Positions 8,511 to 19,795 of a DNA stretch of 49,407 nucleotides are shown here, in pieces (within the stretch, counting starts at the first letter, position 1; the number at the start of each line of letters is the position of its first letter). Below the pieces are notes generated by a model, which worked only from the letters and a program-made list of their open reading frames with translations, was not told the origin of the DNA and ran no database searches. The stretch is from the NCBI GenBank assembly GCA_021775625.1, contig JAJFHM010000115.1, forward strand, positions 1 to 49,407. The letters run 5' to 3'. This DNA is from Hyphomicrobiales bacterium. Its GTDB lineage: Bacteria; Pseudomonadota; Alphaproteobacteria; Rhizobiales; JAJFHB01. A program made the translations under genes and the position numbers.

Positions 8511-10892
8511 ATGCGCCCAATCAAAGCTTCAGTCATAGCGTGTCTTTCGCTTGGAGGAGCGGTGTGTCTTTACGCCGCCGATCTGATGCCGACGACTGAT
8601 AACGCTCAAGCCGGCGAAGAAATGTCGAACACGGCACAAGACAAACCTCAGCCCACAGGTGAGGATGCGCTCGCGGCACGGCTCCGTGCGTTCCTCGAAA
8701 CAAAGGAAAGCACCTCCAAGAAGGGCGACCTCAAGAGCTCTGAAGATGACGCTGCTTCCACGCCTGCTGCGGTCGAGACCGAGACGGACGACGACGCGTT
8801 GGACGCGGCAGTAGATCCAGAAGACATGGTTGAGGACGATGCTGAGGAAAGCGAAGAGGCATTGCTTGGTGAAGAGGCCGATGAAGATACGTCGGCCGAT
8901 GAAACAGCATCTGAAGACGCCGACGACGAAGAGGGTTTGCTCGCCGACGATACGGTGTCCGAAGAGACAGATAGCGACGAAGACTTGCTCGCGGACGATA
9001 CGGAAACGGAAGCAACTGAAGATGACACCGAACTGTCGGACTTGCCTGACGACGAGGACGACACCGAGGAGGACACAAACACCGAAAAGGCCGACGTTGA
9101 GGACGACAAGAAAGACAAGACGGTCACCGCGGACGCCGAACATCTGAACCTGTTTCTGGAAAACCGCTACCCGTCCGCCAACACATGCGGCGTGTGTCAC
9201 CCCAAGCACTATGACGAATGGTCGGTGTCGCAACATGCCTACGCGCAGATGAGCCCGGTCTATCTTTCCTTGAACAACCGGATCAACGAACTCTCCAACG
9301 GCTCGAATGGCGACTTCTGCCTGCGCTGCCACAGCCCGGTCGGCGCCAATCTTGGCGAAAGTTCCTTCATGTCCAATCTGGACCGGCACCCGACATCGCG
9401 CGAAGGCATTACCTGTGTCGTGTGCCACCGCATCAGCAAGGCATACAACAAGGCAAGTGGCCGGCTTGCGCTCGTCGAAGGCGGGTTGACCGACCCGGTG
9501 TTCGGGCCGACCGGCAATGACGGGCTGCAGGAGGTTCTGGCCAAACCGGAAACCTTCCGCGTCGTGACCGACCCCGACGAACCCGGACGCCAGATTCACG
9601 GCGAAGCGAAACTTTTCGATCCCATCACGACGCCGACGTTCTGCGGCTCATGCCACGACGTGACATTGTTCAACGGATTCCGGCTTGAAGAGGCGTTCAG
9701 CGAGTACCGCGTGTCGCCGGCAGCGGCCGAAGGCATCACCTGCCAGGATTGCCATATGGGCAAGGTGCAGGGCAAACCGTCGGGTTACGAGCAGGGCCCC
9801 GCAGCGATCGTCGGCGATGTCCCGACCAAGATCCGCAAGATCACCAGCCATCTGTTCTCCGGGCCGGATTATTCTCTTATTCATCCGGGCATTTTTCCGC
9901 ACAACGCGGAAGCCGCAGAGTTCAAGACGCTGCGCGAATGGTTGCAATTCAAGCACAAGGAAGGCTGGGGCACGGACAAGTTTGAGAATTCAGCGCCGGA
10001 CAATTACAAATTCCCGGAAACCTGGACTTCGATCGACGACCGCTACGATGCCCGCGAGATTCTCAACAAGCAGTTTGAGAAGCTGGAGCTGGCCCGCAAG
10101 AAGCGGTTGGAAATCCTCCGCATCGGCTTCCTTCTGGGCGATGTGGTTCCCGAACGCGCCAGCGAGAACGGCCTCTCGTTCCGGGTTCAGGTCAAAAACG
10201 GGACCAATGGCCACAACGTCCCCACCGGCTTCACCGGAGAACGCGTCATCTGGCTCGACGTCACCGTAACTGATGCCGAAGACAGCGTTGTTTTCCGGTC
10301 CGGCGACCGTGACAAGAATGGCGACCTGAAAGACGGGCACTCGTCATATGTCCATGCCGGCAAGGTCAAACGCGACAAGTATCTGTTCTCTTTGCAGTCG
10401 ACCTTTGTGGTGCAGAACGGACGTGGCGGTGAACTCGAACAGGTTATCCCGATCCCCTACCCGTCCTTTGCATTGCCGCGGGTTCTGCCATCTCCCAATT
10501 CGCTTATCTTCACTGGTGAGCCGGCGACCGAGCGCAATCACAAGAAGGGCATCGAACCCCTGGGCGAACGCTGGGCCTCTTACAAGGTCAGCCGCAACCA
10601 GCTGACCGGGAAAGGGCCGTACAAGGCGACCGTGAAACTGCGGGCGCAGGCGGTACCGGTCAACCTGCTGATCGCGATGCAGAATGTCGGCTTCGACTTC
10701 GGCATGACGCCAGCCCAACTTGGCAGAGAACTGGTTGCCGGGACACAGACGTTGTGGACGAAGGAGCTGACGTTCGATGTTGCGTCTTCGCTCACTCCGG
10801 TCGCAGCAACCACGTTCGATGCCAAGCCGGATGGCCCGATCAGCATCATCCCGACCCACCGCGCCAAAAAAAGCGAAATCGAACTCAAGTAA
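8511..10892 (+). CDS. Secreted pentahaem c-type cytochrome with a long N-terminal D/E-rich tract and a haem-free C-terminal domain
   Basis: Signal peptide MRPIKASVIACLSLGGAVCLYA. Five CxxCH motifs (CGVCH, CLRCH, CVVCH, CGSCH, CQDCH). Acidic tract at about residues 77-199. C-terminal ~330 aa have no haem motif (GHNVPTGFTGE...). AGGGGAGA lies upstream of the ATG. Confidence 0.85.
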   Translation: MRPIKASVIACLSLGGAVCLYAADLMPTTDNAQAGEEMSNTAQDKPQPTGEDALAARLRAFLETKESTSKKGDLKSSEDDAASTPAAVETETDDDALDAAVDPEDMVEDDAEESEEALLGEEADEDTSADETASEDADDEEGLLADDTVSEETDSDEDLLADDTETEATEDDTELSDLPDDEDDTEEDTNTEKADVEDDKKDKTVTADAEHLNLFLENRYPSANTCGVCHPKHYDEWSVSQHAYAQMSPVYLSLNNRINELSNGSNGDFCLRCHSPVGANLGESSFMSNLDRHPTSREGITCVVCHRISKAYNKASGRLALVEGGLTDPVFGPTGNDGLQEVLAKPETFRVVTDPDEPGRQIHGEAKLFDPITTPTFCGSCHDVTLFNGFRLEEAFSEYRVSPAAAEGITCQDCHMGKVQGKPSGYEQGPAAIVGDVPTKIRKITSHLFSGPDYSLIHPGIFPHNAEAAEFKTLREWLQFKHKEGWGTDKFENSAPDNYKFPETWTSIDDRYDAREILNKQFEKLELARKKRLEILRIGFLLGDVVPERASENGLSFRVQVKNGTNGHNVPTGFTGERVIWLDVTVTDAEDSVVFRSGDRDKNGDLKDGHSSYVHAGKVKRDKYLFSLQSTFVVQNGRGGELEQVIPIPYPSFALPRVLPSPNSLIFTGEPATERNHKKGIEPLGERWASYKVSRNQLTGKGPYKATVKLRAQAVPVNLLIAMQNVGFDFGMTPAQLGRELVAGTQTLWTKELTFDVASSLTPVAATTFDAKPDGPISIIPTHRAKKSEIELK

Positions 10893-11004
10893 CCACGCGC
10901 ATCCAACCCCAACGGACAGCATTCAGGCTGTCCGACGGGGCGGCCGCGTCACAGATTTTCCCGCCAGTTTGGTGGGCCCAGATCCAGAAGGATATCGCAG
11001 AGCC

Positions 11005-12630
11005 ATGAAAAGAAAGAACGGCCGAAGCTTTGTGCATCACACCTCAATTGTATTGGCTACAGCGGGCATGGTGCTGTGTATTTCCGGCATCGCGACCGCC
11101 GGCGCATCCGAAAGCGAAACCGAACCATGGTACAGCTGGTTCTGGCCGCTCGGTGAAAAGCAGGAAGTCGAGGAACTCAAGGACGAATATGTTCCGTTCC
11201 GGACTGAACGCGGCTCCACGCCCACACAAACCGAGGACGGCGAAACCACCATCACGGCGGAGAGCACCTGGTACTCAACCTTGTTCTCGCAAGGCGGAGA
11301 TCAAGACCGGCTCAAGGAAGACTTCAAACCTCTGGATACGTCCACGCGCAACCTGCCGCCGAGACCGACACTGTTCGCGGAAATAGGCGACGGGTTCCTC
11401 GATACCGGTCAGCTGGATGCGGGCTTTGAGGTTCCCGTCCTGGGCGCTGTCTGGCAGCCAAGGCTGTGGTCCTACTTCATTTATCGGACGGCGATCCAGT
11501 CCTTCGACAATGGCGCCCCTGGCGTCGAACGTGAGACCGAGTGGGCGCATCGTCTTGACCTGTTCGTCAATCTGCAGCTGACCGGCACAGAAAAGGTCGT
11601 GCTCGGGCTCCGGCCGTTTGACAACAATCGGCCGAACCAGTTCACCAGATACACCTTCTCCGGGATCAATGAAGGCTTCAACGATGAGTTCAACTACATT
11701 CCCGAAACTCTGTTCTTCGAAGGCGATCTGGGCAGCCTGTTTCCGGTGTTCGACCGGCGCGGTGTAATCCCGCTCGACTTCGGCTTCACGGTCGGGCGCC
11801 AGCCGATCACCTTTCAGGAAGGCATCCTGATCAACGACACAGTCGATGCGTTCGGCCTTATCCGCAACAATATCCCGGTTCCAGGGTTTTCCAATTTCCG
11901 CGTCTCTGGCATGTGGGCGTGGAACCGCCTCGACCGCAACGACATCGCCCGCAACTCGGATGAAGACATGTTCGCGCTGTTCGCCGCCGCGGACGGCCAC
12001 GTCAGCACCTACAATCTGGATATGATTTACGTTCGCGACGATGGCAATGGAGATGGCTTTTACGTCGGCGCATCCGCTATCCAGCGCATCGCCGCCCTCG
12101 ATGGAATGAGCACCGCATTCCGGGTCAATGCCTCCTTCGCACTGGAAGACGAAATCGCGGGAAACCCCGGCAATACTGTTGGTGACGGTGTTCTGCTGAC
12201 GGCGGAATTCTCCAAACATCCGCATGGTTCAGACGACATCGTTTACTTCAATCCGTTCCTCGCCATCGGCAATTTCACCCAGGCCGGACGCGAGCCGGTG
12301 GTCGGCGGCCCGCTGGCCAACACCGGCATACTGTTCGCCTCGCCCGCGCTGGCAAACTACGGGGCCGAACTCAATCCGTTTACCGATGACGACGTCGGCG
12401 CCGCCTTCGGCTACCAGGCATTCTGGGACAACAACCGCCGCAACCTGATCCTCGAGATCGCCGGCAAGCACAGCTATTCCGGTCAGGGCTTCGACACGCT
12501 CGGCTTCGGGCTGCAGTTGCAGCAGGCGGTTGGCCGGCACGTGCAGCTAACGTTCGAGGCCTTCTATGCCCTCAACGAAGACCGCGGCGACGGCGCAGGC
12601 GCCCGCGCGGAAGTACAGGTCGTGTACTGA
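11005..12630 (+). CDS. Outer-membrane beta-barrel (porin-like) protein
   Basis: Signal peptide (MKRKNGRSFVHHTSIVLATAGMVLCISGIATAGA), alternating hydrophobic beta-strand patterning throughout, and a C-terminal ...ARAEVQVVY with an aromatic last residue, typical of BAM substrates. Start set at the ATG at 11005; the track ORF from 10777 is over-extended. Confidence 0.7.
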   Translation: MKRKNGRSFVHHTSIVLATAGMVLCISGIATAGASESETEPWYSWFWPLGEKQEVEELKDEYVPFRTERGSTPTQTEDGETTITAESTWYSTLFSQGGDQDRLKEDFKPLDTSTRNLPPRPTLFAEIGDGFLDTGQLDAGFEVPVLGAVWQPRLWSYFIYRTAIQSFDNGAPGVERETEWAHRLDLFVNLQLTGTEKVVLGLRPFDNNRPNQFTRYTFSGINEGFNDEFNYIPETLFFEGDLGSLFPVFDRRGVIPLDFGFTVGRQPITFQEGILINDTVDAFGLIRNNIPVPGFSNFRVSGMWAWNRLDRNDIARNSDEDMFALFAAADGHVSTYNLDMIYVRDDGNGDGFYVGASAIQRIAALDGMSTAFRVNASFALEDEIAGNPGNTVGDGVLLTAEFSKHPHGSDDIVYFNPFLAIGNFTQAGREPVVGGPLANTGILFASPALANYGAELNPFTDDDVGAAFGYQAFWDNNRRNLILEIAGKHSYSGQGFDTLGFGLQLQQAVGRHVQLTFEAFYALNEDRGDGAGARAEVQVVY

Positions 12631-12681: not shown

Positions 12682-13971
12682 ATGACGACATCCACAATCG
12701 CGGAAATTGGCGGACTGATGATTATCGCAGCCGTCACCCTTCAATTGCTGATGGGCCTCAGGGCCATGCGGGCACGCGCCTCCGAGCGCGGCCGGCATGG
12801 GTCTGCGATCACAGAGTTTAGCGTAGAACCAGCCGGACGGCCGGAGACCGCCACAACGTCGAACAGTGTTGAAACCGTTCTGTGGATGGGGAAAAGAAAG
12901 TTCCGCATTGCCAGGCGGATGTATGAAAACGAATCTCAGGACATCTGTTCTTACTATCTGGTGCCGCTGGACGAACGGGCCTTGCCCGGCTTTCGCCCGG
13001 GACAATTCCTGACCTTCGAGTTGCCGGTTCATGAGCAAGAGCATCCCGCGATGCGATGCTACTCTCTCTCGGAAAGCCCGACGGTGGATGAATATTACCG
13101 TATCTCGGTCAAGCGGTTGCCGGCTCCGGCAAACGCGCCTGAAAACACCCCGCCAGGCTTGTCATCCGGTTTTTTTCACGATGTTGCCCTTGAGGGCGAC
13201 ATCGTCGAAACGTTTGCTCCCACGGGCCAGTTCTGTCTCGATCAAGGCTCGAACCGTCCGGTTGTCCTGATCGCGGGAGGCGTTGGCCTGACACCTCTTT
13301 TGAGCATGCTGAACTGGCTCATCGACACTCGATCCGAGCGCGAGATCTGGCTGTTCTATGGGGTGCGGAACAGGTCCGACCACATTATGTATGACCACCT
13401 GAAGCGGGTGCGAAAAGAATGCCCGAACGTCAACATGTACATCTCCTACTCGCAGCCGACGCCAAACTGCCGGCCACGCGTTGACTACAATGTCCACGGG
13501 CACATAACAGTCGATCTCATACAATCTGTGCTGGGTGGCGATCAGTACGAATTTTACCTTTGCGGCCCAGCGGCCATGATGAATTCAATCCGGTCTGGCC
13601 TGACGGAGTGGGGCGTGCCGGCAGACGATATCCGCTCGGAAGCCTTTCAGGCACCCGCGCCTTCAAAACAGACATCCGTGGCCGACGGGACGATCGAGAC
13701 TGACGAGGAGCCAGGGGCATTTGAAGTAAAGTTCTCCCGCTCAGGCCGCATCCTGCGCTGGAACAAAGGCGTCGACACATTGCTCGAACTTGCCGAATCC
13801 AACGGTATCAAGATGCCCTGCAGCTGCCGTTCCGGGAACTGTGGTACGTGTCTCACGAGGCTCACCCAGGGAACCGTCGATTATGTTCACCCGCCGAGCA
13901 AGGAACATGAAGACGGCTCCTGCCTGCCCTGCATCGCGCGGCCGAAATCAGACCTCGTGCTCGATCTGTGA
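12682..13971 (+). CDS. Membrane-anchored ferredoxin-NAD(P)H reductase-type flavoprotein with a C-terminal plant-type [2Fe-2S] domain
   Basis: N-terminal TM helix (IAEIGGLMIIAAVTLQLLMGL) followed by a basic stretch, FAD motif RCYSLSESP, NAD(P) motif GGVGLTPLLSM, and a C-terminal C-x4-C-x2-C...C (CRSGNCGTC...CLPC). Confidence 0.85.
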   Translation: MTTSTIAEIGGLMIIAAVTLQLLMGLRAMRARASERGRHGSAITEFSVEPAGRPETATTSNSVETVLWMGKRKFRIARRMYENESQDICSYYLVPLDERALPGFRPGQFLTFELPVHEQEHPAMRCYSLSESPTVDEYYRISVKRLPAPANAPENTPPGLSSGFFHDVALEGDIVETFAPTGQFCLDQGSNRPVVLIAGGVGLTPLLSMLNWLIDTRSEREIWLFYGVRNRSDHIMYDHLKRVRKECPNVNMYISYSQPTPNCRPRVDYNVHGHITVDLIQSVLGGDQYEFYLCGPAAMMNSIRSGLTEWGVPADDIRSEAFQAPAPSKQTSVADGTIETDEEPGAFEVKFSRSGRILRWNKGVDTLLELAESNGIKMPCSCRSGNCGTCLTRLTQGTVDYVHPPSKEHEDGSCLPCIARPKSDLVLDL

Positions 13972-13998: not shown

Positions 13999-16293
13999 TT
14001 ACCTGGGAACTTTGGTGTTCATGATCGGAGCCGTCACCCCGTCTACATGGTAGTCATGACACGTCAGGCAGCCATCATTTGCGGCGTCCGCCGTGTGACA
14101 GGCCGTGCAGACGTCTTTGCCCACGGGTTTGAAATTGGACGCGAAGGTCAAGGGATCGTAATCTTCGAAACCCTTTTGATAGGCTGCGGTCTGATCCAGC
14201 TGATGGCAGCTCAAACAACCTTTTTTATCGGGAAAGCCGAAATGCGGTTCATGCATGAACCGCGTGAAGCGGCCCAATTTGGCGGCCGATGTCGCCGTCC
14301 CCCAATTCACCTGCCGGGCGTCGGCGTTGTCTGCATCAATACTGTGGCACTTCGTGCACTGGCCTTGAGCATTCTTGTCGGTCAACACCGAAAACACGGC
14401 AGTTGCGGCAGGCGATGAACGCCCTGCGGACAGGTCGAACCACGCTTTAAAGAAAGTGTCGGCATGACCCACCGGCTTGTAGAGAACGGAATATTCCTGG
14501 CGGTACCAACCGCCGAACTCGGCCCAGGTCTGGGCGTCGACATTCAGAGGAGAGGCTGCGGGTTCCTCCTCGACGTCGTCCTCCTCAGATGAAACCTCCT
14601 CGCCGCTCGCCGTGTCGTCTGAAGCGGCCTCCTCCAGATCGTCGCCGTCGTCTTCGGACAGGATATCGGCGTCATCGTCTGTATCGGTACTGTCATCATC
14701 CGCGGTTGCGGCACTATCGGGGTCCTGTCCCGCGGTGGGTTCGCCAAGACCCGACAATTCGGTTCTGAACAAAGCGTCGGTCGAGTCCACCGCGCGGGCA
14801 AGATCACCCGCATCAATAGGGCGATGCGCCATCAATTCCGCTTCAACATCGGGCAACCAGTCGCGGATGGCGCCTGCGACCACGTCACGGGGCAGACTTG
14901 CGGTCAGCCTGGTGAGGGTGTCCGGGGCCATATTTCCGGCGTTATCAAAGCGCTTGAGCACCATGCTCGGTCTGACCGCCGAAAGCGCGTAGATCAGGGT
15001 CTTTATTTCCCAGGCAAACCACTCGACCGCGCGAAGCTCGCTCTCCGACGCCCCGTTCAGGTTCAAAAGATCCAGTTCGTTCACCAAGGCCAGCAAGGCC
15101 CTGCGATCTTCGTTCCAGCCGAGCAGCATGGTCGCAAACGGCGTTACGTTCGCTTCGGAGGCTTCCGGCCATTTTCCAACGTCAATGTTCCTGTCCGCGA
15201 GGGTTTGGACGTCGAGACCGGGAAGTGTGAGAAACTCAATACCCTGCGGCCCTGAAAGCCGTTCAGTGCCGGCAATCTGGTGCAGGTGACAGGAAGAACA
15301 GACCGTCTCGAACGGTTTGACGTTCATGTTCTTCTTGTCGGCGGCGAGCGTGTGGCAATCTGCGCAGGCCTCGGGAACCTGCTGAGATTGATCCTTCCTG
15401 GCGCGGGTCTTCTCGAAATGCTCTCCGAAGTGAGAGGCATGATCGAAGTTCGTCCGGGTGCGGCGGGCAAAAGGGTACTTGCGAAAACCGGGGTGCCCAT
15501 CCTCAAAGCTTGTGAACTGCGCTGCATGGCAGCCCTGACACCGATCTGCTGAAACCGCCGAAAGATCGGCAGCCACGCCACGGTGTTCCTTGTGACAGGA
15601 GGCGCAGAAAATACCATCCCCCACCGCTCTCGCAGTTGGGAATACCGCGTTGCCGACCCAACGCGACCAGGGGGTGCCTGTGGCGGTTTGCCCGGAACGG
15701 TTCCGGTCGGTCAGCGCTTTCAGCTTGTCCAGAGGCTGGCCGTGTGGTTGCAGAGCGTCTGTACTGAGCTGATGGCAGGACAGGCAGGCCTTGCTGTCTT
15801 GGCGTTCTGACGACGGCTTCACAATGGCATGGAGCCAGGCAAACCCTCCTTCAGTGATGTTTGAATGACAGGTGCCGCACTCTGCAATCGGGCTGTGCCC
15901 GGCGTGCATCGGACCAGGCACGATGATCATGGCGTCGCCGGCATAGGTCAATGCCAGCACGAATACTGCGAAAATCAGCGCCGCAGTCCAGCGTGTCACG
16001 GCAGTGCGCACTGACCGCAGGCTCCGGATCGGTCGGCACGGAAGTATGGCATGGGCACACATGCCGTCCTCACCCGGCCCCTCGGGACACGGCCCTCCCC
16101 TTGATGCCGGGCGGCGACACCGCCAGCGCTCGGCTGCCATTGCCGGCACGCACTCGAATGTCGCCTGGCATCCGCCGCGGTGATCGGGGCCCATGGGACA
16201 GGCGCGGCCCGCAGCCGACCTGCCGCAAATCCACTTGTCGTCGGATCTGCCGAACAAACCACCGCCGGTGATTGAGCCAAAGGAGAACGTCAA
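13999..16293 (-). CDS. Membrane-anchored decahaem c-type cytochrome with an N-terminal Cys-rich module and an internal acidic linker
   Basis: Ten CxxCH motifs: six in residues ~139-336 and four in ~646-746. TM/signal-anchor RWTAALIFAVFVLALTYAG. D/E linker at about 524-578. TTG start 3 nt after the upstream stop. An alternative ATG at residue 78 would remove the Cys-rich part. Confidence 0.8.
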   Translation of the reverse strand: MTFSFGSITGGGLFGRSDDKWICGRSAAGRACPMGPDHRGGCQATFECVPAMAAERWRCRRPASRGGPCPEGPGEDGMCAHAILPCRPIRSLRSVRTAVTRWTAALIFAVFVLALTYAGDAMIIVPGPMHAGHSPIAECGTCHSNITEGGFAWLHAIVKPSSERQDSKACLSCHQLSTDALQPHGQPLDKLKALTDRNRSGQTATGTPWSRWVGNAVFPTARAVGDGIFCASCHKEHRGVAADLSAVSADRCQGCHAAQFTSFEDGHPGFRKYPFARRTRTNFDHASHFGEHFEKTRARKDQSQQVPEACADCHTLAADKKNMNVKPFETVCSSCHLHQIAGTERLSGPQGIEFLTLPGLDVQTLADRNIDVGKWPEASEANVTPFATMLLGWNEDRRALLALVNELDLLNLNGASESELRAVEWFAWEIKTLIYALSAVRPSMVLKRFDNAGNMAPDTLTRLTASLPRDVVAGAIRDWLPDVEAELMAHRPIDAGDLARAVDSTDALFRTELSGLGEPTAGQDPDSAATADDDSTDTDDDADILSEDDGDDLEEAASDDTASGEEVSSEEDDVEEEPAASPLNVDAQTWAEFGGWYRQEYSVLYKPVGHADTFFKAWFDLSAGRSSPAATAVFSVLTDKNAQGQCTKCHSIDADNADARQVNWGTATSAAKLGRFTRFMHEPHFGFPDKKGCLSCHQLDQTAAYQKGFEDYDPLTFASNFKPVGKDVCTACHTADAANDGCLTCHDYHVDGVTAPIMNTKVPR

Positions 16294-16296
16294 GGC

Positions 16297-17109
16297 TTAA
16301 GGCACTCCCGCGGTGTAGGCGTAAATGACGGCGACGTGGAGCACGGCAAGCACGATCATTCCGTAGGTCGCAGGGATATGGACGAACAACCAGAGCCGCA
16401 GCAGCAGCTCATATGCATATCGGTTGTTCAGTGTGTTCTTCTCTGTAAGCACCTCCCGCATAGCCTGCATGGTTTGCTTGCCGCCATCGTCGAGACGTTT
16501 TTCAAGGCTGTCCATCTCCTCGCACAGGCGCCTGAACGTGGAAGGCGAACGCCGAAAAAGCCCAACGGTGCTGCTTGGGCCATTGAGAAATCCGGATAAC
16601 GTGTTGGCGTAGAAGTCGGTGATGCTCGGCGATGCGGCAACGCCTCCCACCCCCAGCACCAAGTCGTCGGCACGCTGCAGCAATTCAGTTTGCGCTGCCG
16701 GAAAATCATCAAAGGCAGTTCCGCCCCGGTTCTGTTCCAACTTTGACGGAACGCTGCGTGTCAGGTAGGCGCCGAATACGCCGCTCACAGCCAGGATCAC
16801 GAACAGTGCCCACAGTGCGGTTTCGAATATACCGGTCGGCCAGGCATATTGAGTGTGCAACGCAAACGCGGCCAGCAGGAAGAAACCTGCATAGATGTGC
16901 GCCCGCATCCACGACGACACATTGCCCAGGGGCAGCAGCGGGAACTTCCGGCGCAGGCTGAACAGCACTTGAACCCCACACCCCAGGAGCAGAATCCAAC
17001 CATCCAGAAAGCGCGCATCGCGCAGCGAAGCGTCGTAAACGCCGACCAGCCAGAACATCGCCGCAACGGCGAGAGCGGTCAGCAGGCTGTGTCGTATGAG
17101 ATCGCGCAT
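16297..17109 (-). CDS. Integral membrane protein (about 5 TM) with two H-x13-H pairs; candidate dihaem b-type cytochrome
   Basis: Hydrophobic helices; HIYAGFFLLAAFALH and HIPATYGMIVLAVLH sit on two helices predicted to run in the same direction; a ~120-aa soluble loop lies between TM4 and TM5. ATG at 17107-17109 is preceded by GGAG. The gene overlaps the upstream gene by about 31 nt. Confidence 0.65.
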   Translation of the reverse strand: MRDLIRHSLLTALAVAAMFWLVGVYDASLRDARFLDGWILLLGCGVQVLFSLRRKFPLLPLGNVSSWMRAHIYAGFFLLAAFALHTQYAWPTGIFETALWALFVILAVSGVFGAYLTRSVPSKLEQNRGGTAFDDFPAAQTELLQRADDLVLGVGGVAASPSITDFYANTLSGFLNGPSSTVGLFRRSPSTFRRLCEEMDSLEKRLDDGGKQTMQAMREVLTEKNTLNNRYAYELLLRLWLFVHIPATYGMIVLAVLHVAVIYAYTAGVP

Positions 17110-18743
17110 AGCCACTCCGAAAGGCCATTGGTGTCGCGCAGATCGACCCGCACAAGCGCGTCGTGCGGACAGGCGCGCTCACAGGCCGGGCCGCCCTTGC
17201 GGCCGGCACACAGGTCGCATTTTTCCGCCCGCTGAATTTGAACGCCATCCTCGTCGACCAGAAACGCTCCACCGGGATCGCGCACGTCAGCCATTTGAAT
17301 ATTGTCATAGGGGCACGCCTTGGCGCAGGCCGCACAGCCGATGCAGGTTGCCTCATCGATCACCACGGTACCGCTCACTTTGTCACGGTGAATGGCACCG
17401 GTGGGACAGTCGACCAGGCAAACCGGATCGAAACAATGCATGCAGGCCTGGGCAACCATCAGGTTGTGATGTGTGGGGCCTTTTCGGGCAAAACGCGCAA
17501 CACCGTCATGTGCCGCGGCGCAGGCGCGGACGCAGTCGTCGCAGTTGACGCAGCGTTCGGTGTTTATCGCCATCGCCATGGCCCCGTTGGTGTAGCGGTT
17601 GTCGACAAAAAACTCCGTGTAGGACCGCGGCAGGTTCGCCTTGGCGGATGGTTTTGCCGAACCGAGCGTCGCCCTGGCCTTGCGGGCGTACCTCTCCGGC
17701 AGATCGGACAGCACGTGCGCCGCAACGATCTGTGTCGGGATCCGCACCAGATCGGCATAGCCGACCGCACGAAAACCGTTCGGGAACTTGAGCTCGCCCT
17801 GCCCTTCAGCGGTGCCCAGAATTTGCGGCAGGCCGATGATGCCATTTTTCGTGATGTACCCCGTCGTCCGTTCCTCATGTCCGAGCCGTTCGGTGACACG
17901 GATGGTTCCTGAGTGGACCAGCAACAGACCATCGAGATAATGATCCTGCTCGGCAATAATGGGTTCCCGCTCGATGGCCGGGACATGACCGTTTGCGCTG
18001 GAAGCGGATTTTTGGAACCGGTGTGTCCAGTCAACATCGCCATAGCGCTCGAACGTTGCGTTCTCGGCAATCTGAAGCAGTGTCCGGTCATCGACATTCG
18101 CAAACAACGAGCTTCCCTGAAGGCAGTTCCACAAGCCCCACTGACGATACTGATCCTGCATTCTCTCGCGGAACGGATCCGACCAGCGCATGAGCTCCCG
18201 TAGTGCCGGCCACCGCAGCTCTAGGAGCAGTGTATCGTCGTCTTCAACCATGACCGAGGCGGTTCGCGGAGATCTCGAAAATGCACCCAGAACACCGAAC
18301 AGATCATAACGGCCAAGGGACAGCACCGGAGGGCTGCAGACGCCGGGCTTGAGCGATGGATCGGGGTCCAACCCTTGGTTCCTGCGCGCCGTTTGCCGCA
18401 GACCCGTGAGTGCGCGAAGCAGCGATCCGATCCGGGCTGCCGGTTTGGATCCTTCACTGCTCCGCACCGGCATCAGGCTCTTTACGTTGCCCCTGAGAAC
18501 GACGAATACAGAGGTGCCGTACTCACCGGCGCGATAAACCATGTCGCCTTTTGAATAGCGGACAACGCGGGTGTCGTTGGCAATGATCTCGGACAGCGGG
18601 CTTGCGTCCGGGAATGCGTCGGCATCGACATCTTCAAACAGCGGAATGGAAAGCATGGCCTTCACATCCTGCGTCGGCACCGGCGTTCCCCCGAATGGTA
18701 TCGCCCACTTCCTTGGTCTTTCCGTCTGCTGGACCCTCACCAA
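17079..18743 (-). CDS. Cytoplasmic protein with two cyclic-nucleotide-binding-like domains fused to a DmsB/NrfC-type 4x[4Fe-4S] ferredoxin module
   Basis: cNMP-like beta-roll regions (VVRYSKGDMVYRAGEYGTSVFVVLRGNV; LLLVHSGTIRVTER). Four Cys groups: CVNCDDCVRAC, CMHCFDPVCLVDCP, CIGCAACAKACP, CDLCAGRKGGPACERACP. No Tat or Sec signal. GGAGG lies upstream of TTG/GTG starts at 18743/18740. Confidence 0.8.
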   Translation of the reverse strand: MVRVQQTERPRKWAIPFGGTPVPTQDVKAMLSIPLFEDVDADAFPDASPLSEIIANDTRVVRYSKGDMVYRAGEYGTSVFVVLRGNVKSLMPVRSSEGSKPAARIGSLLRALTGLRQTARRNQGLDPDPSLKPGVCSPPVLSLGRYDLFGVLGAFSRSPRTASVMVEDDDTLLLELRWPALRELMRWSDPFRERMQDQYRQWGLWNCLQGSSLFANVDDRTLLQIAENATFERYGDVDWTHRFQKSASSANGHVPAIEREPIIAEQDHYLDGLLLVHSGTIRVTERLGHEERTTGYITKNGIIGLPQILGTAEGQGELKFPNGFRAVGYADLVRIPTQIVAAHVLSDLPERYARKARATLGSAKPSAKANLPRSYTEFFVDNRYTNGAMAMAINTERCVNCDDCVRACAAAHDGVARFARKGPTHHNLMVAQACMHCFDPVCLVDCPTGAIHRDKVSGTVVIDEATCIGCAACAKACPYDNIQMADVRDPGGAFLVDEDGVQIQRAEKCDLCAGRKGGPACERACPHDALVRVDLRDTNGLSEWLCAISYDTAC

Positions 18744-18790: not shown

Positions 18791-19795
18791 TCACTTCGCC
18801 GGCTTACCTTTGTATTTGTTTGGTTTCGGGATCATCGCGTCGAGTTTCGCGAAGCGTTTCCCGTCATACCGTGTGACCAGCGCCACCGCCTCAACGGCGA
18901 TCTTGTCGGCCACCCTTGTCAGCACCTTGTCGTTGTTGAGCTTGAGCTTTGCCTTCTTCGACAAAGCCACAATTTTCTTGAGCTCTTCGACCTTCGGAAG
19001 CGCCTTCGCGATCGCCCTGAGCTTCTTGCGCGCCTTCGCTGCCCGCTTTGCCATCTTGACCGCGTATTTCTTTTTCTTGGTTGCCTTGCCGACGGCCCGA
19101 ATGGCGGTTTCGTATTCAACAATTGCGCCCACAAGGAACATCATCCGCTTGCGCGCAGGGGTTGCCTTCTTGTTCTCTTCGCCCTTCGTGTACCAGACAT
19201 TGTGGCGCACTTCGCCCTGTGACCAGGACACCAGCTCAAACTTGCTGCCGGCGGGATGTCCGCCCACGTTGACCAGCTTTTCCTGCGGCACAACGTGGCA
19301 GCTGTAACAATTCTTCGCCAGCTTGTACAAGGCACTGGGCCTGATCAATCCGAGCTTCTCGGACTTCTGCCAGCGCGCCCTGGCCTGGGCTTTAGATTCA
19401 AGCTCCTTCTTCTTGTTGCCGCTAAATTCCGCGTGAACTTTGATCCAGTCCTTGCCTTCCGAATGACACAGCTCGCAGGAAATCCCCGCAATCGGTTCGG
19501 TCTTCTTGCCCTTCGTCTGATTTGTGAAATGGCAGTTCAGGCACAGGCTCTCCGACTTGATGCGCTTGATCTTCATTTTCCTGGAGATCTTTTTGGCCTG
19601 TTTGCTGCGCGGCATTTTGCGGAAGGTCGTGAAGTGGTGCGTGCTTCTCCACACTGTCGCCTCGTCCCGGTGACATTCCGCACATTCGTCAGGCCCTTCA
19701 ATTTTTTTCGGATTTGTATCCGCACTTGCCCCGGTGCCCGACACCAGCGCGATGATGGCGCCGGCCACGGCCATTTTCATAATCTGAAATTGCAT
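18791..19795 (-). CDS. Secreted tetrahaem c-type cytochrome (c554-like) with a strongly basic K-rich C-terminal region
   Basis: Signal peptide MQFQIMKMAVAGAIIALVSGTGASA. Four CxxCH motifs: CAECH, CLNCH, CELCH, CYSCH. The C-terminal ~130 aa are about 30% K/R by hand count. Confidence 0.85.
   Translation of the reverse strand: MQFQIMKMAVAGAIIALVSGTGASADTNPKKIEGPDECAECHRDEATVWRSTHHFTTFRKMPRSKQAKKISRKMKIKRIKSESLCLNCHFTNQTKGKKTEPIAGISCELCHSEGKDWIKVHAEFSGNKKKELESKAQARARWQKSEKLGLIRPSALYKLAKNCYSCHVVPQEKLVNVGGHPAGSKFELVSWSQGEVRHNVWYTKGEENKKATPARKRMMFLVGAIVEYETAIRAVGKATKKKKYAVKMAKRAAKARKKLRAIAKALPKVEELKKIVALSKKAKLKLNNDKVLTRVADKIAVEAVALVTRYDGKRFAKLDAMIPKPNKYKGKPAK

Follow-up and report, generated by a model that had tools for sequence, protein, structure and literature searches.

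PtdG, the decahaem cytochrome of the PCC4/ptd cluster, and a predicted cytoplasmic tandem four-cysteine domain at its N-terminus

The window considered here, positions 1 to 49,407 (49,407 nucleotides, nt) of contig JAJFHM010000115.1 (assembly GCA_021775625.1) of a Hyphomicrobiales bacterium, encodes on its minus strand a membrane-anchored decahaem cytochrome, PtdG, that carries two similar four-cysteine (Cys4) units ahead of its anchor helix. An earlier note on this DNA had proposed that the Cys-rich extension is translated, and the conservation of homologues, the position of the start codon and the pattern of substitution bear this out; comparison across the family confirms translation of the part upstream of Met78, from a TTG at 16293. 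The PtdG family and the PCC4/ptd gene cluster to which it belongs are already published, whereas the cytoplasmic tandem Cys4 domain predicted here is, to judge by the papers and family libraries that were searched, undescribed. There is no mention of an N-terminal Cys-rich domain in the available part of He et al. 2017 (PMC5566968), the word 'cysteine' occurs 0 times in the preprint of Elbon, Stewart and Glass (bioRxiv 10.1101/2023.11.21.568154), and further literature searches found no description of such a domain in PtdG.

Translation of the extension ahead of Met78

Residue n of the minus-strand open reading frame (ORF) starts at position 16293-3(n-1), and the parts of the gene are as follows.

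13999..16293, minus strand: PtdG, membrane-anchored decahaem cytochrome of 764 amino acids (aa); ORF and translation, with homologues at E=0; TTG 16293 is taken as the true start from a start position kept across the family
16291..16293, minus strand: TTG start codon of PtdG, following the ptdF stop and GCC
16234..16293, minus strand: N-terminal leader, residues 1-20 (alignment consensus; AF2 model)
16144..16233, minus strand: Cys4 unit 1, W21-P50, W-x-C23-x8-C32-x2-GP-x5-C42-x5-C48-x-P (Cys invariant in 64/64; homologous to unit 2)
16030..16125, minus strand: Cys4 unit 2, W57-P88, W-x-C59-x9-C69-x2-GP-x5-C79-x6-C86-x-P (Cys invariant in 64/64; hhalign against unit 1)
16060..16062, minus strand: ATG of Met78, where the gene call on record (687-aa form) begins; as a start it is not conserved
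15991..16029, minus strand: basic juxtamembrane stretch, residues 89-101 (IRSLRSVRTAVTR), from the charge count before the anchor
15937..15990, minus strand: predicted single transmembrane anchor helix, about residues 102-119 (hydropathy and AF2 helix)
15865..15879, minus strand: first haem-binding motif, C139-G-T-C-H143, at the start of the periplasmic haem domain (C139, C142 and H143 are invariant columns)

The Cys-rich stretch had been described exactly, both in coordinates and in sequence: 16227..16030 encode residues 23-88, which read CGRSAAGRACPMGPDHRGGCQATFECVP ... CRRPASRGGPCPEGPGEDGMCAHAILPCRP and hold eight cysteines at positions 23, 32, 42, 48, 59, 69, 79 and 86. The description of the protein as a decahaem cytochrome is equally sound, with 10 CXXCH motifs counted in the ORF.

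In a first set of 87 homologues of PtdG (E<=1e-5, many of them at E=0 to 1e-150) the extension is present in 22, down to about 28-30% overall identity, and the pattern and spacing of its cysteines are conserved. An alignment of 64 N-terminal sequences has all eight Cys invariant together with W21, G35, P36, G40, P50, G72 and G77, and G24, G29, W57, R61, G66, G67, P73 and P88 are nearly so. A word-based search limited to PtdG residues 1-125 found 4 proteins only. A 79-residue profile of the module, run against 1.84 billion representative proteins, gave 602 matches at E<=1e-3 and 531 at E<=1e-10. The module lies at about residues 10-130 in all but two or three of the 150 profile matches listed, and ten CXXCH motifs are present in 97 of the 148 newly listed ones, most of the others being short fragments.

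The position of the start is a family property. A start codon stands 20-21 codons ahead of the first Trp in most of the 57 loci that carry the module, the TTG of the window is 20 codons ahead of W21, and TTG or GTG occupies the equivalent position in many loci. The gap of only 3 nt to the upstream stop, one of the reasons first given for translation, is as described (TAA 16297-16299, GCC, TTG 16293-16291), and the closest relative (L081, 87% aa identity) has an identical TAA-GCC-TTG junction. The high third-position GC, another of those reasons, also stands: by codon position GC is 0.61/0.71/0.75 over residues 1-77 and 0.62/0.49/0.68 over the remainder of the gene. Between the window and this closest relative, codons 1-77 have 14 third-position differences against 9 at positions 1 and 2, a pattern that matches the 78 third-position and 46 first- and second-position differences of codons 101-500.

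An alternative in which the gene begins at Met78, leaving an ordinary signal-anchored cytochrome and an untranslated leader of ~235 nt, can be given hardly any credence. It has in its favour the database gene call for the window, which starts there (P0002, 687 aa), and an ATG (16062-16060) that, with GAGGA 4 nt upstream just as had been pointed out, looks stronger than the TTG. However, the region upstream is conserved as protein, with its cysteines invariant, to 28% identity, and the GAGGA is itself coding sequence, being part of the codons of a conserved G-E-D-G motif. The Met78 position is Val in the 87%-identical relative (L081/P0003) and S, T, A, Q or K in other homologues, which do not begin at its equivalent. 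The short form is rejected because of this conservation, the codon-position pattern shared with the gene body and the start kept ~20 codons before the Trp across the family.

Truncated calls are confirmed for two members, the window (at Met78) and L001, on whose contig the 701-aa NCBI call takes a GTG just before the anchor helix, with the full module and a TTG lying upstream. The starts of P0006-P0009 and P0014 also seem to be mis-called, judged by their truncated N-termini. It appears that, with the true start a TTG or GTG after the ptdF stop, gene callers take an internal ATG or GTG and drop the module wholly or partly, and this may be one reason for the absence of a family model for the module.

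Anatomy, placement and relatives of the module

The repeat unit, W-x-C-x8/9-C-x2-G-P-x5-C-x5/6-C-x-P, is ~30 residues long. That the module is internally duplicated had been proposed from its appearance and is upheld by residues shared between the halves, 13 of 30 being identical in the window, and by profile comparison: hhalign of the family profile of half 1 against that of half 2 gives a probability of 97.4% and an E-value of 1.3e-11, showing that the two Cys4 halves arose by internal duplication. Among the 148 profile matches listed, a count of the pattern finds two units in 140, one unit in 7 and three units in 1. Single-unit proteins with exactly four Cys include L013 and, by alignment, P0024 and P0081; three-unit versions were seen at the N-termini of the representative proteins P0153 and P0228. 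Because copy number varies in whole units, from one to three, each unit looks autonomous, most simply with one metal centre apiece. A ninth Cys adjoins C7 in 42 of the 64 aligned sequences. The CP dipeptides of the window's module are not conserved in homologues, and haem-regulatory CP motifs were rejected on that ground. Ahead of the Trp the family has a leader with the consensus ..LQxF....SxYERPxQx, from which the copy in the window has diverged.

The same genome (G000) has a second ptd cluster on contig C13 (L084:1-7940), consisting of partial PtdA and PtdB followed by PtdC, PtdG, PtdF and PtdE. The PtdG paralogue encoded there (38.5% identical) combines ten CXXCH motifs with a leader of the family consensus type (KILQNFEFRKSTYERPHQKWVCG) and the full 8-Cys module, encoded at L084 5721-5957 on the minus strand.

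A cytoplasmic module followed by a single anchor helix had also been predicted, and the hydropathy and charge of the protein agree with it. PtdG has only one hydrophobic segment (the best 19-residue window is 107-125, and windows scoring >=1.6 start at residues 97-109), and residues 1-22 are not hydrophobic. The 15 residues before the anchor include five K/R, all of them Arg, and no D/E, and the 15 after it have no Lys or Arg; between the final Cys of the module and the anchor lies a linker of ~11 residues, with a family median net charge of +4. The haems of c-type cytochromes are attached in the periplasm, these proteins being matured after Sec export. Given the single helix, the distribution of Arg and the periplasmic site of haem attachment, PtdG is predicted to be N-in with residues 1-100 in the cytoplasm. 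An extracellular-type disulfide-rich mini-domain, suggested by EGF/granulin-like spacing, is ruled out by this topology, because one helix and a periplasmic haem domain put the module in the reducing cytoplasm. A Tat signal peptide (S/T-R-R-x-F-L-K) was likewise rejected: the window has P-I-R-S-L-R-S, the consensus is P-x-R-S-L-R-A-x-R, and RR occurs in some homologues only. Further into the protein, an acidic haem-free linker (14560-14724 of the window, residues ~524-578) separates haem 6 from haem 7; it is of variable length and poorly conserved in the full-length alignment, and several homologues are 100-300 residues longer there.

An AF2 model of the N-terminal part built on 64 sequences has a mean predicted local distance difference test score (pLDDT) of 69, an earlier one on 19 sequences being weaker at 61.6. 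The anchor helix is predicted at about model residues 91-120 with pLDDT up to 94, unit 2 mostly at 77-84 with ~67 at its end, unit 1 at about 54-63, and the leader (model residues 1-17) below 50; short beta-hairpin strands are predicted through W-x-C and C-x-P.

Known families offer no home for the module. Searches against Pfam with one member and with 64 members gave sub-threshold noise only, the best match among the 64 N-termini being Zn_ribbon_recom (E 0.22, in 4 of the 64), and NCBIfam gave no match above cut-off for the window or the 64 members. Nothing significant was found in PDB by sequence or by profile, and Foldseek against PDB returned 0 matches for the better AF2 model and one non-significant match (E 7) for the weaker. 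The 'two-CW' domain (NF045718) matched none of the 64 members at E<=10. ScmA (TIGR04252, the SynChlorMet cassette Cys-rich peptide) gave weak matches in 16 of the 64 PtdG N-termini, with a best E of 0.016, and none for the window; membership was rejected on the sub-cut-off scores and on there being no radical-SAM gene seen among the cluster genes scanned, and the matches are probably compositional. The module is a candidate new domain family without Pfam, NCBIfam or PDB relative.

The ptd cluster and the loss of the module within it

In the available part of He et al. 2017 (PMC5566968), the PCC4 cluster has a decahaem cytochrome accompanied by an inner-membrane protein with two WX3HX13H motifs and SGXXG, subgroup II has a pfam13247 gene upstream of the latter, and the HX13H pairs of the inner-membrane protein are likened to the ferric-reductase domain. 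The cluster was later named ptdABCDEFG (Elbon, Stewart and Glass, bioRxiv 10.1101/2023.11.21.568154). The ORF of the window has the ten CXXCH motifs and full-length homology to the 87 homologues, and its neighbourhood is that of subgroup II, with PtdF upstream, a PF13247 iron-sulfur (Fe-S) gene beyond it, a tetrahaem cytochrome, a further multihaem cytochrome, a porin and an oxidoreductase of the flavin adenine dinucleotide (FAD)/NAD(P) type. By homology and gene context the ORF is PtdG, the decahaem subunit of PCC4/ptdABCDEFG. Its neighbours are these.

8511-10892, plus strand: PtdA, multihaem cytochrome, 793 aa (Pfam; conserved beside PtdG in related loci)
10777-12630, plus strand: ORF of PtdB, putative porin, 617 aa (no Pfam match; conserved beside PtdG in related loci)
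12682..13971, plus strand: PtdC, FAD/NAD(P)H oxidoreductase tethered to the membrane, its C-terminal domain of the 2Fe-2S type (Pfam and NCBIfam)
16297..17115, minus strand: PtdF, five-helix inner-membrane protein, 272 aa, with two WX3HX13H and SGVFG, predicted dihaem b (motifs in sequence)
17079..18743, minus strand: PtdE, 554 aa, with cyclic nucleotide monophosphate (cNMP)-binding and 4Fe-4S ferredoxin domains (Pfam PF13247 and cNMP_binding; NCBIfam)
18791..19795, minus strand: PtdD, tetrahaem cytochrome c554-like (Pfam PF13435)

PtdA is pentahaem in the preprint on the ptd genes (bioRxiv 10.1101/2023.11.21.568154) and in the available part of the PCC4 paper (PMC5566968). PtdE is read as cytoplasmic because no signal peptide is seen. 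Read as their longest ORFs, ptdE (stop at 17079) and ptdF (GTG at 17115) share 37 nt, 17079-17115 of the window, and the called genes of the closest relative overlap similarly, by 31 nt; either translational coupling is tight or the true ptdF start is further downstream.

A scan with one genome per species found PtdG relatives in 543 genomes, and the best 80 loci, to which the counts that follow refer, were compared; most of the compared loci are from metagenome-assembled genomes. PtdF adjoins PtdG in 77 of the 80. The module and PtdE occur together at 52 loci, PtdE without the module at 10 and neither at 9, and one locus (L013) has a single Cys4 unit. Two genomes (L062 and L068) have the full module without PtdE: neither has a PtdE homologue at E<=1e-10, a threshold against which a control genome scored 3e-215, and as both are metagenome-assembled the absence is not proof.

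On a tree of the haem domain the module is ancestral: every deep branch has it, among them a Verrucomicrobiota and an Acidobacteriota genome. A single Hyphomicrobiales subclade accounts for every loss of the module or of PtdE; within it the module was lost at least 3 times with PtdE, PtdF and the haem domain remaining, and PtdE at least 2 times, in either order relative to the module. Strict coupling of module to PtdE is rejected, as the losses are independent on the tree and module-only and PtdE-only loci both exist. Relocation of the module to another gene was considered too, but in five genomes with a module-less PtdG no other gene for it was found, and the same query recovered both copies in the window's own genome as a positive control.

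The architecture of PtdF is unchanged in all groups, whether module and PtdE are present or absent, and one of its positions, Y207, is changed in two clades. PtdE is the fastest-diverging subunit of the loss-bearing subclade. Subclade members that carry the module have changes at 7-20% of the PtdE positions conserved elsewhere, and those that lack it at 18-28%; in subclade members keeping PtdE the other subunits have 0-15% of such sites changed. A link between the greater divergence of PtdE and loss of the module is suggestive only, because there are two independent loss events and PtdE is fast-evolving throughout the subclade. Taken together, these comparisons point to the module as an accessory element on the complex's cytoplasmic side that tends to decay with PtdE, neither requiring the other.

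According to the available part of He et al. 2017 (PMC5566968), subgroup I contains the same redox domains but arranges them differently. Nine loci of that type without PtdE (L028, L033, L037-L040, L054, L060 and L068) have a weak PtdC match (43-49 bits) just upstream of the tetrahaem gene, at about 1.1-1.3 kb, which fits this description.

Possible roles and comparison with known systems

In the reducing cytoplasm the eight invariant thiols are most likely metal ligands, with one centre to each unit. The suggestion of the earlier note, a Zn- or Fe-S-binding module that links the cytochrome to the cytoplasmic Fe-S/cytochrome b module, is plausible; the comparative data support such a link weakly and rule out strict dependence on PtdE. 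The reading favoured here, tentatively and at somewhat less than even probability, is that of a structural Zn(Cys)4 foot that docks the PtdG anchor to PtdF and to soluble partners. Translation of PtdG starts at TTG 16293, coupled to the ptdF stop, and the first ~100 residues, comprising the leader, the two Cys4 units and the Arg-rich stretch, would stay in the cytoplasm, followed by the anchor and the ten-haem periplasmic domain. Each unit would fold round one metal centre with four thiolate ligands, by preference structural Zn(Cys)4, and the tandem domain would be a compact foot lying against the membrane. The foot may fasten the PtdG anchor to the cytoplasmic face of PtdF, and to PtdE (Fe-S/cNMP) and PtdC (the flavoprotein), and so help to assemble or stabilise the electron path, with electrons crossing the membrane via the two haems of PtdF and not via the PtdG helix.

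Several observations weigh against it. Nearly all structural Zn(Cys)4 sites have a CxxC knuckle, and CxxC knuckles are absent from the sequence of the module, which does not have the zinc-ribbon motif; no zinc-finger family or fold matches it in Pfam, in profile search of PDB or with Foldseek. Confidence in the AF2 model is moderate, and lower for unit 1 than for unit 2. Loci have kept PtdE without the module or the full module without PtdE, and no PtdF sites were found that relax convergently after module loss. An Fe-S or rubredoxin-like iron centre also fits the same sequence data.

Such an iron centre underlies the better of the two remaining rivals, a redox relay in which each Cys4 unit, or the pair, binds iron as rubredoxin-like Fe(Cys)4, [2Fe-2S] or [4Fe-4S] and passes electrons between the 2Fe-2S of PtdC or the 4Fe-4S of PtdE and the inner haem b of PtdF. 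All the neighbouring genes encode redox proteins, the module would be ~11 residues from the membrane beside the place on PtdF where a donor would dock, Cys ligands spaced without CxxC are more usual in Fe-S centres than in Zn fingers, a ninth Cys is common, and module and PtdE decay within the same subclade. Against this, a ~30-residue unit is small for burying a cubane cluster, the module persists without PtdE, and its dispensability in at least 3 lineages that keep the remaining path is hard to square with an obligatory relay. The ferredoxin, HiPIP and rubredoxin class was rejected, the motifs CxxCxxCxxxCP and CxxC...CxxC(G) being absent from residues 1-100 and Pfam and NCBIfam giving no match, a negative compatible with a new Fe-binding motif. 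The relay must be counted unlikely, if still a serious competitor of the zinc foot. Equally doubtful, though worth keeping in mind, is the stronger form in which the Cys4 pair would be a new Fe or Fe-S fold serving as the port by which NAD(P)H electrons from PtdC and PtdE enter the haem-b pair of PtdF and then the ten-haem wire; if the units do hold Fe or Fe-S, PtdG would be a single-helix cytochrome with redox centres on both membrane faces.

A sensor or switch is improbable. The thiol-rich domain would then sense cytoplasmic redox state or metal (Fe, Zn, Cu or Mn) and, with the cNMP-binding domains of PtdE, gate or tune electron flow through the conduit. The complex already has these regulatory domains, the module is accessory and repeatedly lost, and the disordered conserved leader (..LQxF..SxYERP..) resembles a docking peptide. 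However, a framework of eight Cys with Gly and Pro residues that does not vary points to a permanent structural or cofactor site more than to a reversible sensor, and Pfam and NCBIfam searches turned up no relationship to known thiol- or metal-sensing domains.

To return to the zinc foot, the module resembles zinc ribbons and Cys4 zinc fingers in its small Gly- and Pro-rich units of ~30-35 residues, each with an invariant set of four Cys and predicted beta-hairpins, and in its tandem occurrence with variable copy number; it differs from them in its missing CxxC knuckles and in matching none of their families or folds. The N-terminal head is a small, easily expressed fragment, for which the one- and three-unit versions are natural controls of metal stoichiometry.

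With the decahaem of the PCC4/ptd papers the PtdG of the window shares both family and gene neighbourhood. There the protein is regarded as periplasmic (bioRxiv 10.1101/2023.11.21.568154 and the available part of PMC5566968), and the difference is the cytoplasmic Cys head added here. A predicted metal-binding head on the cytoplasmic side of a supposedly periplasmic decahaem would alter the assumed layout of the complex and mark PtdG as belonging to its membrane-spanning core. This is of some consequence for a cluster that is present in hundreds of species, namely Alphaproteobacteria of the sea and of fresh water and, as reported, Nitrospirales, Planctomycetes and other groups, and that is transcribed in oxygen-deficient zones.

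Tmc, Hmc and DsrMKJOP of sulfate reducers combine a periplasmic multihaem cytochrome, a membrane cytochrome b and a cytoplasmic Fe-S protein, and Ptd would similarly join a wire of haems in the periplasm to a dihaem-b subunit in the membrane and an Fe-S subunit in the cytoplasm; PtdG also has a weak TmcA match over residues 292-342 (NCBIfam). In those systems, in contrast, the cytoplasmic Cys-rich parts are separate subunits, the CCG domains of HdrD-like proteins, to which Pfam and NCBIfam searches give the module no sequence relation. NOX and FRE enzymes differ from Ptd in that the Ptd parts are separate polypeptides and the Cys module, without NOX/FRE counterpart, belongs to the cytochrome. 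The likeness lies in the HX13H pairs of PtdF, which have been likened to the ferric-reductase domain, and in PtdC, which supplies the FAD/NAD(P)H part, and by this analogy the module would occupy the docking place of cytoplasmic domains beneath the inner haem.

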